Below, one piece after another: positions 47,719 through 53,736 of a stretch of 64,000 nucleotides of DNA. Under the pieces are notes generated by a model that did no database searches, had not been told where the DNA came from, and saw only the letters and a program-made list of their open reading frames with translations. The first letter of the stretch is position 1. Each line of letters begins with the position of its first letter. The translations under genes were made by a program, and so were the position numbers. Source of the stretch: Candidatus Poseidoniaceae archaeon (GTDB taxonomy: Archaea > Thermoplasmatota > Poseidoniia > Poseidoniales > Poseidoniaceae); assembly GCA_049616955.1 (NCBI GenBank), contig JBMZIJ010000001.1, positions 753 through 64,752 on the forward strand, written 5' to 3'.

Positions 47719-48918
47719 TTACACCATTTTCCCCCAGCCTTTGAGACTCAAGAATGTCGCTGCTGATTCAGAAACAAAAAGTTGATCGCCGTTGGATACA
47801 TCATAACTCTCGTTTCCAAAACGTAGAACGGCGTCGTCCACCACGATTTCAACCGTTACTGATTTATCTGAACCGAATACAAATGCCTCGCTTAGAGCAT
47901 CAAAGGGGTTGCTCGAATCATTGTCCAAACGCTGTAGAGGAAATTCAGTAACACGCATTCCAGTTTTACCATGGAGCGACGTGGGCCACCGAATCTGTCG
48001 ACGGACGTCGATTGTTACGACTTCATCCGTTTCACCAGCAGCACCCAAGACAATGGAGGCATCGGATTTCACCAAATCTAGAAACAATCCTTGAAGCGAA
48101 CCCAACCTCGAAATTTGACCATTACTAACGGAATTTTTCCGCTCTTCATGGAGGAACATATCGGCCAACTTTTTGATACTGGCAGGACCCTTGCCAGGTT
48201 TACCTTCCCTCTGAAGGTTTTCCTTGAGTCCAAGGTGAAGATCCTTCATGATTTTAGCAGAGCCTTCAGCTTCTTGTGCAATATCGACGAGTTTGTCAAT
48301 GAGCGATGGAATTTGTTCGCGAATTCGTTTCGTCCACCCATTCGCGGAATCGTCATTGAAGCGTGTGAGCCCCCCTTGTACATCAACACCTTCTCCACGA
48401 ATATGCGATACTAATTCTCGTCTAGCCTCTGAATCCAGATGAAAAAGTGAGGGATCACGGTAATGGAGATGGAAGCCACGATGTCCAGAAAATGTCACTT
48501 GTAGAAATTGTTCATCAAAACCAAATTCAGGTTGCAGAAAGTCATTCCATAAGCCGTGTGCTTGTTCCTGAATCACATTCAACATTGCTGGAAAATCTCG
48601 ATCTGTTACTCCGGGCAAGTGATCTCCATCAAGATCAAAAATAAGATCCGCACCTTGCCAAACTTTGTCATCCATTTTCAGTTCGTAAGGCTTCTTCCAA
48701 TAAGCCGTAGAATAGAAGCATGAATGCATGGCACGTTCTGATAGAAATTGACGAAGTTCATTTTCGCTTCGAAAGGATTTGTGTCGAAGTGGAGGTGCGC
48801 CTCCAAATGGAATAAACATCCATTCTCTTTTCGGCATCCTCGGTGGACGCCAGTACGTGGATGTTCGATAATATTGGCCAAAACGATGTGCAAAACGTGC
48901 CCATCCAGTTGAAGCCAT
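47719..48918 (-). CDS. priS: DNA primase small (catalytic) subunit
   Basis: LIFDLDGD, FSGHRGFH and DEVVTIDVRRQIRWPTSLHGKTG motifs. Confidence 0.95.
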   Translation of the reverse strand: MASTGWARFAHRFGQYYRTSTYWRPPRMPKREWMFIPFGGAPPLRHKSFRSENELRQFLSERAMHSCFYSTAYWKKPYELKMDDKVWQGADLIFDLDGDHLPGVTDRDFPAMLNVIQEQAHGLWNDFLQPEFGFDEQFLQVTFSGHRGFHLHYRDPSLFHLDSEARRELVSHIRGEGVDVQGGLTRFNDDSANGWTKRIREQIPSLIDKLVDIAQEAEGSAKIMKDLHLGLKENLQREGKPGKGPASIKKLADMFLHEERKNSVSNGQISRLGSLQGLFLDLVKSDASIVLGAAGETDEVVTIDVRRQIRWPTSLHGKTGMRVTEFPLQRLDNDSSNPFDALSEAFVFGSDKSVTVEIVVDDAVLRFGNESYDVSNGDQLFVSESAATFLSLKGWGKMV

Positions 48919-48954
48919 GAAAGAGCCTAACGTTCACAGTTCTTGAACGAAACC

Positions 48955-49167
48955 CTATGCATTTTTCATGTAGAATTTTTCTTCAGTTTCTCCGACAACG
49001 GTAACCGTGTCAGCACCTGTTAATGCAACATAATGATCCCAGCAGTAGTAGTGTTGGTTGTGAACCATAGAAGAGCCGAAGGTAAGGCGAACGCCACATT
49101 CATGACATCGTGGACCAATCTCGCCATTTGGGGCTTGTGCAAGTTGAACGTGTTCGTGTGGCATCAT
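48955..49167 (-). CDS. Small zinc-finger protein (Cx2C-x17-Cx2H)
   Basis: CHECGVRLTFGSSMVHNQHYYCWDHY; AGGTGA SD. Confidence 0.75.
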   Translation of the reverse strand: MMPHEHVQLAQAPNGEIGPRCHECGVRLTFGSSMVHNQHYYCWDHYVALTGADTVTVVGETEEKFYMKNA

Positions 49168-49221: not shown

Positions 49222-49698
49222 TTATGCGATGGTACTGTTGCTCACCCAGTTAAGTAAATCGAGCGCAACTTCGCATGATTCACTCACTTCAACGTGCTCA
49301 TCGTTCAAATAGGTCTCAAGCACTTCGATTGCATCAGGATTGCCAATGGCACCCAATGCTTCTGCAGCTTCATGTCGTACCATGACATGCTCCTCGTGGT
49401 TTGAGAGGATACGAGTTAATGTCGGAAGAGCCTCATCCATTTGCATTTGACCAAGAACATATGCGAGTTCATGACGCAGCAAAGCACTGGATGATGCGAA
49501 TCCTTCGCACAATACTAGGCATGATTCTGGACTTCGAATGTTTCTTAATTTGAAAACAGAGCGCATCCGCTGAAACATTTTTTCATTCTCATCGAGAAGA
49601 ATTGTTCGTAATTGACTCAATTGTTCAATATCCGATGGAGGTGCAGGATCAACCGAGCCGTATTCACTGGTCTCTGGCCGAGATGTCATCGTCTTCAC
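49222..49698 (-). CDS. Half-length deoxyhypusine hydroxylase-like HEAT-repeat protein
   Basis: SALLRHELAYVLGQM, MVRHEAAEALGAIG and VSESCEVALD motifs; GTG overlaps the mqnD stop (or ATG 49689). Confidence 0.8.
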   Translation of the reverse strand: MKTMTSRPETSEYGSVDPAPPSDIEQLSQLRTILLDENEKMFQRMRSVFKLRNIRSPESCLVLCEGFASSSALLRHELAYVLGQMQMDEALPTLTRILSNHEEHVMVRHEAAEALGAIGNPDAIEVLETYLNDEHVEVSESCEVALDLLNWVSNSTIA

Positions 49699-50576
49699 TC
49701 CACTGCACCGATAAAAGAAAGTGTTTCAACATCGAAATCGTTTCGAATCATACCGAGTTCCTGACCTTCTTTGAGAAACCTTCGAATGGAAGAGCGGCCT
49801 TCAGGTTTGTAATCGATTGTTCGATCGTTGACGTACATTGTAACGAATTTCTGATTTGTTTCATCGTCAATGCCACGACCCCATGCCTTTGCAAATTCGA
49901 GTGCTTCCTCAGGATGTGCAATGGAATGCTCAATGCTCATTTTTGTGTACATTGTTATGTCTTCCATGACCTTCTGACCTAAATCCCTTCGAACAACATT
50001 CCCTCCGAGAGGCATTGGCCAGCCATCTGTACGCTCATTCCACCAAACTCCAAGATCGATTAGCACATTCAAATCATGTTCTACGTACGTCAGTTGTCCT
50101 TCATGAATGATGAGTCCGCATTCGTAGGTATCATCAAGAATTCGAGGAATTATTTCATCAAATGGAACCACTTCTACATTAACGTCTCCCCATGCCAAGC
50201 GAAGGCCAAGATATGCCGATGTTTTTAGTCCTGGGACAGCAATCGTTGACGCTTGAGCGTCTTCAAGTGATAATCCCTTTTTTGCAACGATCATCGGCCC
50301 ATAACCTTCTCCCATCGATGCTCCACAATTCATCAGAGCATAATGATCGGATATGTCTGGGTAGGCATGAATTGAAACCGCTGATACTTCCAACTCTTGG
50401 TTCATTGCTCTATGATTGAGCGTTTCGATGTCTTGAAGTTCGTGAACAAAATTGTAGCCAGGAGTTGGGAATGCATTTGTTGTCATTGCATGAAACATAA
50501 ACGCATCATCAGGGTCGGGAGAATGTCCTATTCGGACGATAAGGTTGCCATCATCATCCCGCGGTAGATTGGCCAT
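49695..50576 (-). CDS. mqnD: 1,4-dihydroxy-6-naphthoate synthase
   Basis: HSPDPDDAFMF, GASMGEGYGP, IIHEGQLTY and PLGGN motifs. Confidence 0.92.
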   Translation of the reverse strand: MANLPRDDDGNLIVRIGHSPDPDDAFMFHAMTTNAFPTPGYNFVHELQDIETLNHRAMNQELEVSAVSIHAYPDISDHYALMNCGASMGEGYGPMIVAKKGLSLEDAQASTIAVPGLKTSAYLGLRLAWGDVNVEVVPFDEIIPRILDDTYECGLIIHEGQLTYVEHDLNVLIDLGVWWNERTDGWPMPLGGNVVRRDLGQKVMEDITMYTKMSIEHSIAHPEEALEFAKAWGRGIDDETNQKFVTMYVNDRTIDYKPEGRSSIRRFLKEGQELGMIRNDFDVETLSFIGAVE

Positions 50577-50682
50577 ATGTTGTCCAAAGACAAACCCTTC
50601 AAGAACCAACCGCTTCATTTCATAAACAATCAACTCCATGCATCGACGTATTGTTTATGTAATTGGTAACGTAGTTCCGACC

Positions 50683-52947
50683 ATGGGTAAAGCGTCTCGG
50701 TTCTTACCCACCCTTGCGCTGTTTCTCGCATTAAGCATCCTCGTTGGTTCATCCTCTGGTTCCAGTAGTGGTCTTTTTTTCCATCACACAATTGAAGTTG
50801 AAGATGCTCAATCTGGTAAGCGAACAGTAGAATTAGATTCGCAAGGCCATATCTACGCAACATTTGAATCAAGATTGATAAAATTCGATTCGGAAGGTTC
50901 GATCCTTCAGGAACATCAATTTGCGAATGAAATTCTGGCATCAGCTCTGTCGCCTGACGGTTCAAAACTCGCAGTTACCACACGAACATCTACGGCAGGA
51001 TTGGATTCAGTGTATGTCCTATCTACGGGCGATTTGAGTACCTTGGTATCCAATGATGTCACAAGCACCAATGCAAATCTCTTGGAATGGTCTCCAAACG
51101 GAGCAAATCTCTACACAAATGCTCCCGACAATGGCGTTCTACAACTTAACAAGGACACGTTAGATATCGAGACGTCTTACGTAGGAAATCATACCAATCT
51201 GATGGCGTGTATGGATGTGTCAGCAACGAGTGGGGCGGTATTAACAGCAGATGTTGAAGGTTTAGTCCATCTATGGAACAATGAAGGCGATGTAGTTCTT
51301 CATGAAATTCTTCTCGGATCAACTATTCTTGATTGCCAAATAGGAGACAACGATGAGTACTATTCAGTCTCTACTCCCAACAACGGAATTCGAAAATGGA
51401 CTTTTTCTGGTTCAGAATTGAAACCTATTGACCTTGACGGAGTTCTTCGGTTCGAATTTTCACCAACTCCCAATACATTGATTGTTCACACAGATGCATC
51501 AATGCATCAAATTCTAGCCTACGACGTCGTGAGTGAACAAATTACTGATAGCATCTCGATGTTTCACACCTTCGATGATTATCATGTCGAGTTCGATCAA
51601 AATGGAGCAATGGAGAGAATTCATACTACCTCGAGAGTAAAGCATATTGTCGTTTATGAAAATGAAGTTCATCACGATGGTATAGGCGAATCAGGGATTG
51701 ATACGGATGGTGATGGCGTCCCAGATTCTATTGATGATGATGACGACGGTGATGGAATCGAGGACAATTGGGACCTGAACTGTCCTGATGTCGGCATATC
51801 ATGCTCGTTGTTACCTGATGAGGATTACATTCGAAACATCGACATTGAGCTAAATACAACTCATGTTGTCGTCACACAATCTTTCACACTCAACAAGGTA
51901 CATTCTGCAAGTATTCGAGATCTGGTAAGATACTCGATGGATAGCGATATCAAATTAAGCGCTGAAGAGGCGGGATTGTTCTCGAATGCCATTTGTAACA
52001 ATATGAACGCCATTGATGTTGCTTCATCTCTGAACTCATTTATTTCAGTTGAACAATACTCGTTAAATTTCTCAGAAATGTCTTGTTCTGTTGAGGAAGG
52101 TTTGGTTCTCTATCCTTCAAGCGATCGAATATCACACGTTCGATATGCCATCGATGTGGTTTTTGAATATCAACCAACGACGACAGATGGGTTGGTAGTC
52201 GGCATCCAAAATCATCGATTCACCTCAACCGGTAGCATCACTGAATTGAGTCCTCAGCACCCTCTCTCCATCCACATACACGGTGAAGATATTACGAGCC
52301 AAGAATACGTACCATGGCATATCCAAGAAAATCAAGTGTCCTTTACACTCGCCAATAAACAGGTTGATTCAGGCACCCTTAATCCAAGTTCAATTGCATC
52401 ATCACCTATCCTTATCGGATTGATTCTATTGATGATTGGTGCTCTGATTTTGGCTGGCGTCTTTTTCGCTCGCCGACAATCTGACAAAAGCAATTACGAC
52501 ATTGTACTCGATGAAGACGAGGATGAGGAAGAGGACGAAGATTACGCCTACCCTGATGAGGATGATGACTACTACGATGACGAAGATGAATTCTCAGCAA
52601 TCGATGAGGAACAAGAAGATGAAAATGACGTTGAGGATGATGCTTCCGTTCGACGGCGAGTACCTCCTCGACGAAGAACAGCGTCGTCGAAGCGCGTTCC
52701 TATTCAACCCAAGGAAGCGAATGAAGCAAAGCAACTCCTTCAAGAATCTTCAAAGGAAGTCGTGAGAAAACGACGAGCTCGTCAATCAGAACACGACACA
52801 GTTCGAACAAAGCGGCGTAAATTGAGCGATCAACAGCCCGTAGATGCTGAACCTCGACGAAGAAGAGCGGTCAAGAAAAATCCACAATCAGAGGCCGACA
52901 TGGATGAAACGCTTCGGAAGTTTGTCTCTGAATCACCAGAGGAATGA
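50683..52947 (+). CDS. Single-pass surface protein: WD40-like propeller, thrombospondin-3-like Asp repeat, TM helix and acidic/basic tail
   Basis: LSPDGSKLA, WSPNG and VHLWN; DTDGDGVPDSIDDDDDGDGIED; TM helix followed by a D/E tract. Confidence 0.8.
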   Translation: MGKASRFLPTLALFLALSILVGSSSGSSSGLFFHHTIEVEDAQSGKRTVELDSQGHIYATFESRLIKFDSEGSILQEHQFANEILASALSPDGSKLAVTTRTSTAGLDSVYVLSTGDLSTLVSNDVTSTNANLLEWSPNGANLYTNAPDNGVLQLNKDTLDIETSYVGNHTNLMACMDVSATSGAVLTADVEGLVHLWNNEGDVVLHEILLGSTILDCQIGDNDEYYSVSTPNNGIRKWTFSGSELKPIDLDGVLRFEFSPTPNTLIVHTDASMHQILAYDVVSEQITDSISMFHTFDDYHVEFDQNGAMERIHTTSRVKHIVVYENEVHHDGIGESGIDTDGDGVPDSIDDDDDGDGIEDNWDLNCPDVGISCSLLPDEDYIRNIDIELNTTHVVVTQSFTLNKVHSASIRDLVRYSMDSDIKLSAEEAGLFSNAICNNMNAIDVASSLNSFISVEQYSLNFSEMSCSVEEGLVLYPSSDRISHVRYAIDVVFEYQPTTTDGLVVGIQNHRFTSTGSITELSPQHPLSIHIHGEDITSQEYVPWHIQENQVSFTLANKQVDSGTLNPSSIASSPILIGLILLMIGALILAGVFFARRQSDKSNYDIVLDEDEDEEEDEDYAYPDEDDDYYDDEDEFSAIDEEQEDENDVEDDASVRRRVPPRRRTASSKRVPIQPKEANEAKQLLQESSKEVVRKRRARQSEHDTVRTKRRKLSDQQPVDAEPRRRRAVKKNPQSEADMDETLRKFVSESPEE

Positions 52948-53736
52948 AATTGGCTCATTCACATCACAACACCGTTCCAAATATTCAGACAAACCAGCCA
53001 CATGTTCACCATCAAGCCGGTTGAACACCTCACCAAAATATCGGTTTAGTCGTTCCATCGACATGTCAGAATGGAGATGGGCATGGAGGAGAACTTTTTC
53101 ACGTGTGAGAGGATTATTCTCAAAATCATCCAAACGCATGAGCAATGCTTGGTGTGCCTCCCTCACCGCTTCGACAGGAGTGTCTTTCCGAGCTGCGAAA
53201 ACGCCGAAGACCATTGGCTGGCCTGTTAACTCAAGCCAAGCCTGACCGAGATCAAGTTGGACGAGTTCTGGATTTGTTTTCGCTCGGTCAAGGGCACGGT
53301 CACCTATGAGAAGGGCTCCATCGCATCGTTCAAGCATACTATCCAAATCAGGTCCCATTTCAACAGGGCGTGGATCAATACCTCGCTCTTTGAGAAGATA
53401 CTTGAGTAAAGCTACAGAGGATGACGAATCCGTCGGTAGAGCAATGTCACGCATCTCTTCGAGCGGCCTATTACCAAAAACGAGAACGCTTCCAACTTCA
53501 CCTTTGGAGCAAATACCAATCTCAGGTACGAGTGCTAATTCATCTCTATGCTTAGCAAAGTCTGCAGCAGGAATTGGTGCGAGGACACAGTCTTTGCGTA
53601 GAAGATGCCCTGTCAACCAAGATGGCGGAGCGGGTAAAACATGGAATGAATCATCCAAACCAACGAAGAGAGGATCGCAATTCATGAAAGCCACCCTGCC
53701 AATTGTTTTCATCCATCGAGGCGTTTGTTTCATCAT
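52933..53736 (-). CDS. mqnA: Chorismate dehydratase
   Basis: IGRVAFMNCDPL, GEVGSV, LLIGDRAL, DLGQAW and PMVFGVF motifs. Confidence 0.92.
   Translation of the reverse strand: MMKQTPRWMKTIGRVAFMNCDPLFVGLDDSFHVLPAPPSWLTGHLLRKDCVLAPIPAADFAKHRDELALVPEIGICSKGEVGSVLVFGNRPLEEMRDIALPTDSSSSVALLKYLLKERGIDPRPVEMGPDLDSMLERCDGALLIGDRALDRAKTNPELVQLDLGQAWLELTGQPMVFGVFAARKDTPVEAVREAHQALLMRLDDFENNPLTREKVLLHAHLHSDMSMERLNRYFGEVFNRLDGEHVAGLSEYLERCCDVNEPISFLW

Follow-up and report, generated by a model that had tools for sequence, protein, structure and literature searches.

A half-size homologue of deoxyhypusine hydroxylase in Poseidoniales archaea as a candidate homodimeric aIF5A hydroxylase

A 64,000-nucleotide stretch of the genome of a Candidatus Poseidoniaceae archaeon (GenBank assembly GCA_049616955.1, contig JBMZIJ010000001.1, positions 753 to 64,752), which we call the window, encodes a small stand-alone protein that is a true member of the deoxyhypusine hydroxylase (DOHH, EC 1.14.99.29) family in both sequence and fold and that is equivalent to a single half of eukaryotic DOHH. 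We propose that in aerobic Thermoplasmatota this half-size protein works as a di-iron hydroxylase, active as a homodimer, and turns the deoxyhypusine of the translation factor aIF5A into hypusine, a reading to which we give a probability of about 0.6. The dimer is predicted by structural modeling, and we infer iron binding, the use of O2 and aIF5A as the substrate. A 2016 paper (PMC5178350) states that no DOHH orthologue was found in any archaeal genome. Our literature search did not turn up a description of an archaeal DOHH, most subscription journals lying outside its reach.

The family assignment draws on several comparisons. Pfam recognizes only generic HEAT_2 and HEAT_PBS repeats in the protein. 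Among all PDB sequences, however, its top match is human DOHH (4d4z; E-value of 2.8e-68), with which it aligns twice, residues 7-149 with DOHH residues 143-285 (127.7 bits) and residues 29-153 with DOHH residues 14-138 (102.6 bits). The next PDB matches, artificial alphaRep proteins recovered by phmmer at E-values of 1e-32 to 1e-6, stand about 36 orders of magnitude below. Scores against the NCBIfam equivalogs of phycobilisome (PBS) lyase proteins are far under the respective cut-offs (NblB, 30.3 bits against 300; CpcE, 19 against 330; CpeY, 15.8 against 600). A search of 1.84 billion representative sequences returned 418 proteins at E-values of 1e-30 or less; most among the best 150 representatives are proteins of about 300 residues that are matched in two stretches, and all of these that are named in their source are eukaryotic DOHH. 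Identity to animal DOHH is 45-55%, more than an archaeal protein would normally show. Several JGI entries of half-size proteins carry the label 'deoxyhypusine monooxygenase', a name also given to clusters in the ESM Atlas, and one NCBI entry is labeled 'hypothetical protein'.

The fold provides a concordant picture. The AlphaFold2 model derived from an alignment of 49 relatives has a mean predicted local distance difference test (pLDDT) value of 90.4 and consists of eight helices arranged as four HEAT repeats. Its top Foldseek match is again 4d4z (E-value of 1.3e-10, TMq of 0.85, 46-48% identity), followed by alphaReps at E-values of about 4e-5 and TMq of 0.67-0.69. DOHH is described in PMC8153317 as a dyad that comprises eight HEAT repeats and bears four His-Glu sites. 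The window protein belongs to the family, yet it has four repeats and two His-Glu motifs where DOHH has an eight-repeat dyad and four motifs in one chain, and we consequently treat it as a variant of the DOHH family.

These results bear out much of the initial annotation of this DNA, made from the letters alone. It had described a stand-alone open reading frame (ORF) of about 156 residues, which is present in the two alternative lengths given in Table 1, the shorter being the usual length among database relatives. Every motif that it cited is found in the translation, the human motifs that it quoted match the 4d4z alignment, and the translational coupling to mqnD that it described is visible in the sequence as an overlap of start and stop codons. 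Its proposal that the ORF equals one DOHH half with both His-Glu motifs intact agrees with the human alignment, with the alignment of 49 relatives and with that of 107 two-half proteins. The clustering check that it had suggested, DOHH against PBS-lyase proteins, places the protein with DOHH.

Conservation was examined in an alignment (A1) of 49 archaeal half-size sequences, 41-93% identical to the window protein, and in a comparison set of 107 two-half DOHH proteins that were cut into N and C halves. Residues D17, P18, A19, P20, H76, E77, G83 and Q84, as well as R108, H109, E110, E113, G116, S141 and C142, are among those invariant in all 49 sequences, so that both His-Glu motifs are retained throughout, as the initial annotation had asked of the homologues. 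In the 107 two-half proteins, conservation in each half amounts to 96-100% for the first His-Glu motif, to 99-100% for the second and to 96-100% for G83, Q84, R108 and E113; the C halves keep G116 within the same range, and 88% of the N halves have it. G83, Q84 and the glutamates of both His-Glu motifs presumably take part in substrate binding. The ratio of nonsynonymous to synonymous substitution rates (dN/dS) was 0.043 in one pair of loci (L001 vs. L004) and 0.02 in another (L005 vs. L006), other pairs being saturated at synonymous sites; the gene is under purifying selection. Given these ratios and the E-value obtained with human DOHH, the resemblance is far beyond chance.

A single chain holds half of the motifs of DOHH, and the initial annotation had suggested that a homodimer could supply the rest. 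A homodimer is indeed predicted: the model of two chains with two iron ions reached a score of 0.77, the best of three controls one of 0.01, and the high value may owe something to similarity with the solved DOHH structure. In calibration, the mark that this score passes was reached by 20 of 30 solved same-chain pairs and by 1 of 23 solved single chains, counts that are only a rough guide here because our own alignment and the ligand riding along differ from the calibration. The runs share at least 65% of their contacts, with partner pLDDT values of at least 86. The confident interface is symmetrical and comprises residues 40-42, 45, 71-73, 105-106, 109, 136-137, 140-141, 143-144, 147-148 and 151, thus including H109 of the second His-Glu motif. 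Invariant or nearly invariant positions make up 12 of the 19 interface residues and 36 of the 139 residues elsewhere (Fisher p = 0.0023). Searches with the protein itself, with profile A1 and with HEAT_PBS give no second match in the window's own genome, which is 89% complete; since the gene is single-copy there, no partner of the same family is on hand for a heterodimer.

The mechanism that we envisage follows from this arrangement. The ORF would encode one DOHH half of four HEAT repeats, and two identical chains are predicted to pair about a two-fold axis. Each chain would contribute two His-Glu motifs, and the dimer would in this way recreate the di-iron site with four motifs to which, in eukaryotic DOHH, both halves of one chain contribute. 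Deoxyhypusine synthase (DHS) would place deoxyhypusine on the conserved lysine of aIF5A, and the half-size dimer would then use O2 to hydroxylate this residue to hypusine.

Table 1. Position of the half-size gene, its motifs and its upstream neighbor in the window
Feature	Position	Strand	Remark
Half-size DOHH homologue	49222..49698	minus	158 aa from GTG; ORF list
Alternative ATG start	49687-49689	minus	Residue 4; gives the 155-aa form
GTGA overlap of half-size gene start and mqnD stop (TGA)	49695..49698	minus	Read off the sequence
N-terminal tail motif D17-P18-A19-P20	49639..49650	minus	Identical to the motif in the linker between the halves of DOHH
First His-Glu motif, H76 E77, followed by G83 and Q84	49468..49473	minus	Codons CAT GAA
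Second His-Glu motif, H109 E110, inside VRHEAAEALG	49369..49374	minus	Codons CAT GAA
MqnD-like upstream neighbor (PF02621)	49695..50639	minus	Pfam E-value 9.4e-65

The substrate pathway expected by the initial annotation is encoded in the same genome. An aIF5A gene was detected with TIGR00037 (107 bits), having been missed by PF01287, and its product carries the loop KPGKHGSAK; it is located at G000 C1:131935-132309. Two DHS-like genes (PF01916) score 298 and 142 bits. The divergent gene of 142 bits lies outside the window at G000:C17:23610-24512 (minus strand), the canonical one being that of 298 bits; the DHS gene assigned to aIF5A is at C15:7229-8137. Ten other Thermoplasmatota genomes were inspected in this respect, and two DS matches were found in five of five without the half-size gene and in five of five with it; the second DHS-like gene therefore does not track the half-size gene.

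The taxonomic distribution was surveyed, as had been suggested, in an order sample of 201 Poseidoniales genomes (match threshold, E ≤1e-5) and in a phylum sample of 401 Thermoplasmatota genomes. The half-size gene is present in 157 of the 201 Poseidoniales genomes (85/99 in family f1, 2/2 in f2 and 69/99 in f3), including 43 of 61 high-quality ones, and most of the open frames among the matches listed are about 155-200 codons long. Some genera are wholly or almost devoid of it (g12, 0/2; g13, 0/3; g17, 1/9; g20, 1/8), and in genus g2 a subset of genomes lacks it (25 of 34 have the gene); the flanks stay intact in these lineages. In the phylum sample 109 of the 401 genomes have a match. Outside Poseidoniales the carriers belong to families f29 (18/19), f10 (7/9), f26 (3/3), f28 (2/6) and f18 (1/1), and to three further families with one carrier each. 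The gene was not found in f6 (0/48), f16 (0/53), f19 (0/24) or f5 (0/14). No protein matched more than one DOHH half among the matches listed for the 401 genomes. Possible two-half or fused forms at six loci outside Poseidoniales (L034, L037, L040, L048, L050 and L051; 289-631 residues) were set aside: no Pfam domain was found in their extensions, and we take these long ORFs as start-codon artefacts.

The gene tends to accompany a marker of aerobic respiration. COX1 was found in 173 of the 401 genomes of the phylum sample, among them 104 of the 109 carriers, the exceptions being G019, G063, G074, G257 and G442; the half-size gene accordingly occurs in 5 of the 228 genomes without COX1 (both hand tallies). 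This co-occurrence, which speaks indirectly for the use of O2, is to be taken as a pattern and not as a statistical test, relatives not being independent. The gene is thus restricted to lineages with aerobic respiration, though many COX1-bearing families do without it.

Several observations weigh against a hydroxylase of aIF5A. The gene was not found in 44 of the 201 Poseidoniales genomes and is therefore dispensable. In all eight negative genomes checked, the locus (mqnD, small ORF and PriS, in that order) is intact and the half-size gene cleanly absent, with no remnant detected by tblastn at E ≤1e-3; this points to repeated clean losses across Poseidoniales genera, as judged from sequence. 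Many aerobic families lack the gene, including f4 (0/10) and f22 (0/9). Neither DHS nor aIF5A lies beside it in 20 loci outside Poseidoniales, where neighbors were established by specific searches for MqnD, DHS and aIF5A only, and the window likewise offers no such genomic link. The dimer prediction may merely echo 4d4z, in which the two halves of one chain pack together, and the retained mqnD order together with one true MqnD fusion leaves room for another role. PMC5178350 adds two further points. In early amino-acid analyses, the euryarchaeotes, thermoplasmales included, had mostly deoxyhypusine, no Poseidoniales being among the organisms assayed. The same analyses recorded hypusine in several crenarchaeotes; its presence in Sulfolobus and relatives, outside the taxa searched here, is unexplained by the half-size gene. 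A 2026 review (PMC12856214) holds that some archaea seem to rely on deoxyhypusine alone.

The most serious competing explanation retains the fold and the di-iron chemistry but directs them to another substrate, which would be a polyamine in its free form or some protein other than aIF5A that bears a modification of the aminobutyl type. The lack of a genomic link to DHS or aIF5A, the dispensability of the gene in many relatives and the existence of a second DHS-like paralogue would all fit such an enzyme. That paralogue, however, occurs with and without the half-size gene alike, the protein is closer to the eukaryotic DOHH halves (41-44% identity over 130 core columns) than these are to each other (37%), and the residues presumed to take part in substrate binding are conserved, so that we regard a different substrate as rather unlikely. 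It is very improbable that the likeness to DOHH is superficial and that the protein, devoid of catalytic activity, serves as a HEAT-repeat adaptor or binds metal. Such a view could appeal to the generic HEAT and PBS-lyase repeats that Pfam and NCBIfam detect, and to the alphaReps that also match; it is at odds with the distance between the DOHH match and all that follow, with the invariance of exactly the metal-ligand motifs and with the low PBS-lyase equivalog scores. The high identity to animal DOHH might also raise the suspicion of eukaryotic contamination, of a fragment of a full-length gene or of a pseudogene. We rejected this explanation and give it almost no weight: synteny is conserved and archaeal, on contigs of up to 2 Mb, the frames are open and half-size in nearly all of the 157 genomes, dN/dS is low (0.02-0.04), and a second half was not found in the genome.

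The neighborhood of the gene suggests still another role, that of an accessory to the futalosine pathway of menaquinone synthesis working with MqnD. Besides the overlap of the two reading frames, 28 of 29 other Poseidoniales loci have mqnD as the immediate upstream gene in the same orientation; only L027 of family f2 departs from this order. Furthermore, MqnD and the half-size protein form one ORF of 460 residues with both PF02621 and HEAT_PBS in genome G015 (L026:5087-6469, minus strand), and a metagenome protein of 425 residues (P0274) also combines MqnD and HEAT domains. Such fusions are rare, that of G015 being the sole long open frame among the matches listed for the order sample. Co-occurrence tells a different story. 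None of the 19 genomes of f29, a family rich in the half-size gene, has PF02621, and by our own count it is missing from 24 of the 34 genomes outside Poseidoniales that carry the half-size gene; in the 20 loci from outside the order, no MqnD neighbor was found. Conversely, in the f1 genomes of the phylum sample PF02621 is present in 57 of 57 and the half-size gene in 51 of 57, leaving six genomes of f1, and at least 11 of f3, with PF02621 and without the half-size gene; mqnD is retained at each of the eight Poseidoniales loci inspected that lack the half-size gene. The synteny seen for mqnD extends to PriS and to three further genes of no evident relation, and a hydroxylase is not known to be required in the futalosine route. 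An accessory function in this pathway is therefore very improbable, and mqnD, judged by co-occurrence, is a neighbor through local synteny rather than a partner in function. The initial annotation had noted that coupling to mqnD leaves open a different hydroxylation substrate; other substrates can indeed be entertained, but co-occurrence disfavors a role tied to mqnD. The hydroxylation of deoxyhypusine on aIF5A by a half-size homodimer remains the reading that we prefer.

How the half-size form relates to the two-half enzyme was approached by comparison with both halves. When a profile of the archaeal halves is run against 211 two-half proteins, the C half outscores the N half in 98.6% of them (185 against 148 bits on average). 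Over 130 core columns, mean identity is 41.5% between the archaeal half and the N half, 44.4% between the archaeal half and the C half, and 37.1% between the N and C halves; each half consequently resembles the archaeal chain more than it resembles the other half. Phylogenetic trees were built from 32 archaeal rows (18 of 50 were removed because their identity to a retained row exceeded 80%, and L001 because it is identical to the window) and from 36 two-half proteins cut in two, others having been removed because of gaps, because their identity to a retained row exceeded 55% or by the limit of 36. Only two of these 36 proteins are named, one from an insect and one from a fungus. The IQ-TREE reconstruction (LG+F+R4; support given as SH-aLRT / UFBoot) recovered four clans: the N halves (36 rows, 89 / 99), the C halves (36 rows, 72.8 / 92), an archaeal clan A1 of Poseidoniales and f29 (19 rows, 94.9 / 97) and an archaeal clan A2 of other families (13 rows, 98 / 100). 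The central split joins A1 with N and A2 with C (79.9 / 92), and the N and C clans were likewise pure in a FastTree reconstruction. The archaeal halves thus fall outside both eukaryotic clans in the sampled tree, a tree that is unrooted and whose center is not fixed by the approximately unbiased (AU) test: with the four clans swapped on the maximum likelihood (ML) tree, the three central arrangements obtained p-values of 0.80 (ML), 0.0596 (A1+A2 against N+C) and 0.28, and none was rejected. Constrained tree searches with the -fast option were dropped, as their likelihoods lay about 100 units under that of the free tree.

Character states of the archaeal chain lean to the C half. In the column of the linker that joins the halves of the 107 two-half proteins, the C halves have D in 98% and P in 99%, and the N halves are 88-93% gaps; archaeal positions 42, 72, 141 and 144 also carry the C-half state. 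The motif DP[AT]P stands in the linker of 183 of the 211 two-half proteins and ahead of the N half in one. This one is P0216, a two-half DOHH of 312 residues with two copies of DPAP in its first 20 residues; these copies might be the remnant of a first tail, or the motif might have arisen again by chance.

The initial annotation had seen in the gene a model of the pre-duplication ancestor of DOHH, which it may be, although the sequences do not single out this reading: the tree is unrooted, the AU test undecided, and the C-half states and linker motif would fit a former C half equally well. Two histories thus appear to account equally for the sequences, duplication of a tailed ancestor whose N half diverged later, or an ancient acquisition of a C half that brought its linker along. 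That the half-size gene is a surviving pre-duplication DOHH is a possibility that we advance tentatively and hold to be less likely than not. Under this scenario, an aerobic archaeal homodimer with an N-terminal DPAP tail would have undergone duplication and fusion in the lineage leading to eukaryotes; the second tail would have become the linker, the first tail would have been lost and the N half would have diverged.

Relatives were also sought in wider collections. A total of 393 public contig stretches encode a relative, and nearly all of the 80 retained are titled Poseidoniales, Methanobacteriota, Euryarchaeota or Thermoplasmatota; six of these 80 have bacterial or bare 'euryarchaeote' titles that look like binning labels. 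Contigs with a gene of the Poseidoniales type (63-83% identity) are filed under metagenome-assembled genomes of Rhodobiaceae, Salipiger, Deltaproteobacteria and Yoonia (L064, L071, L103 and L113), and these are probably mis-binned or mislabeled archaeal contigs. A search with the A2 profile for relatives outside Thermoplasmatota gave at least 120 matches; those listed are all two-half proteins of at most 300 residues, the named ones being eukaryotic. The ESM Atlas holds half-size HEAT clusters of Bathyarchaeota and Nitrososphaerota (0.95-0.96), which are leads only.

Other features of the region are worth recording. RNA contigs from four runs map to parts of mqnD (49876-50552) and to 48900-49124; none lies on the half-size ORF, a result that is uninformative either way on its expression. 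An ORF of 70 residues with a CxxC...C..H pattern lies between the half-size gene and PriS (48955-49167, minus strand). It has only weak matches to LIM and to the PP0621 family, and it occupies the same position in many Poseidoniales loci (36-71% identity); from its sequence, it may be a small zinc-ribbon protein. Two PF02621 genes are located 2.3 kb apart on the minus strand, one MqnA-like (52933-53736) and the other MqnD-like (Table 1), and between them, on the opposite strand, lies an ORF of 769 residues with a low-complexity tail that is very acidic and then basic.

A conserved half-size DOHH homologue under selection in one of the most abundant groups of marine archaea contradicts the view that archaea have no DOHH orthologue, as expressed in PMC5178350, and offers a concrete candidate for the enzyme that archaea were thought to lack. 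Its size hints that a metalloenzyme of two pseudo-symmetric halves might also function as a pair of identical chains, and it bears on the origin of DOHH and on the timing of oxygen-dependent hypusination. Lineages that lost the gene occur beside others that keep it, so that aIF5A bearing hypusine and aIF5A bearing deoxyhypusine could be compared between them. If the pre-duplication scenario were true, hypusine, beyond deoxyhypusine, would be made in abundant marine archaea, and eukaryotic DOHH would be of prokaryotic origin.

Comparison with known systems places the half-size protein closest to human DOHH (4d4z/4d50) and yeast Lia1, with which it shares the HEAT_PBS fold, the His-Glu motifs, the glycine of LGQ, the VRHE..E.LG signature and the DPAP motif, which in those enzymes forms the linker between halves. 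It departs from them in being one four-repeat unit of 155-158 residues instead of a dyad of about 300 residues and eight repeats. With two His-Glu motifs per chain it would need to form a homodimer, unlike DOHH, and an active unit is predicted to carry two DPAP tails where DOHH has one linker. Moreover, the gene is archaeal, follows mqnD in an operon-like position and has been lost in many relatives. The PBS-lyase HEAT proteins CpcE, NblB and CpeY belong to the same Pfam repeat family (PF03130), but the half-size protein falls far under their equivalog cut-offs and its host is not a cyanobacterium; to our knowledge, His-Glu di-iron motifs are not a defining feature of these proteins. The alphaReps, consensus designs from HEAT-like repeats, share the repeat geometry. 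They are, however, designed binders, and their matches are matches to the repeat consensus: in three alignments (with u172832 and u99795) both His-Glu positions of the query are mostly paired with other residues. Finally, bacterial EpmC (YfcM) hydroxylates beta-lysyl-EF-P and is non-essential, performing an analogous last step on a lysine of the EF-P/IF5A family. Its fold is unrelated to that of DOHH, which makes EpmC an analogue and not a relative of the half-size protein.
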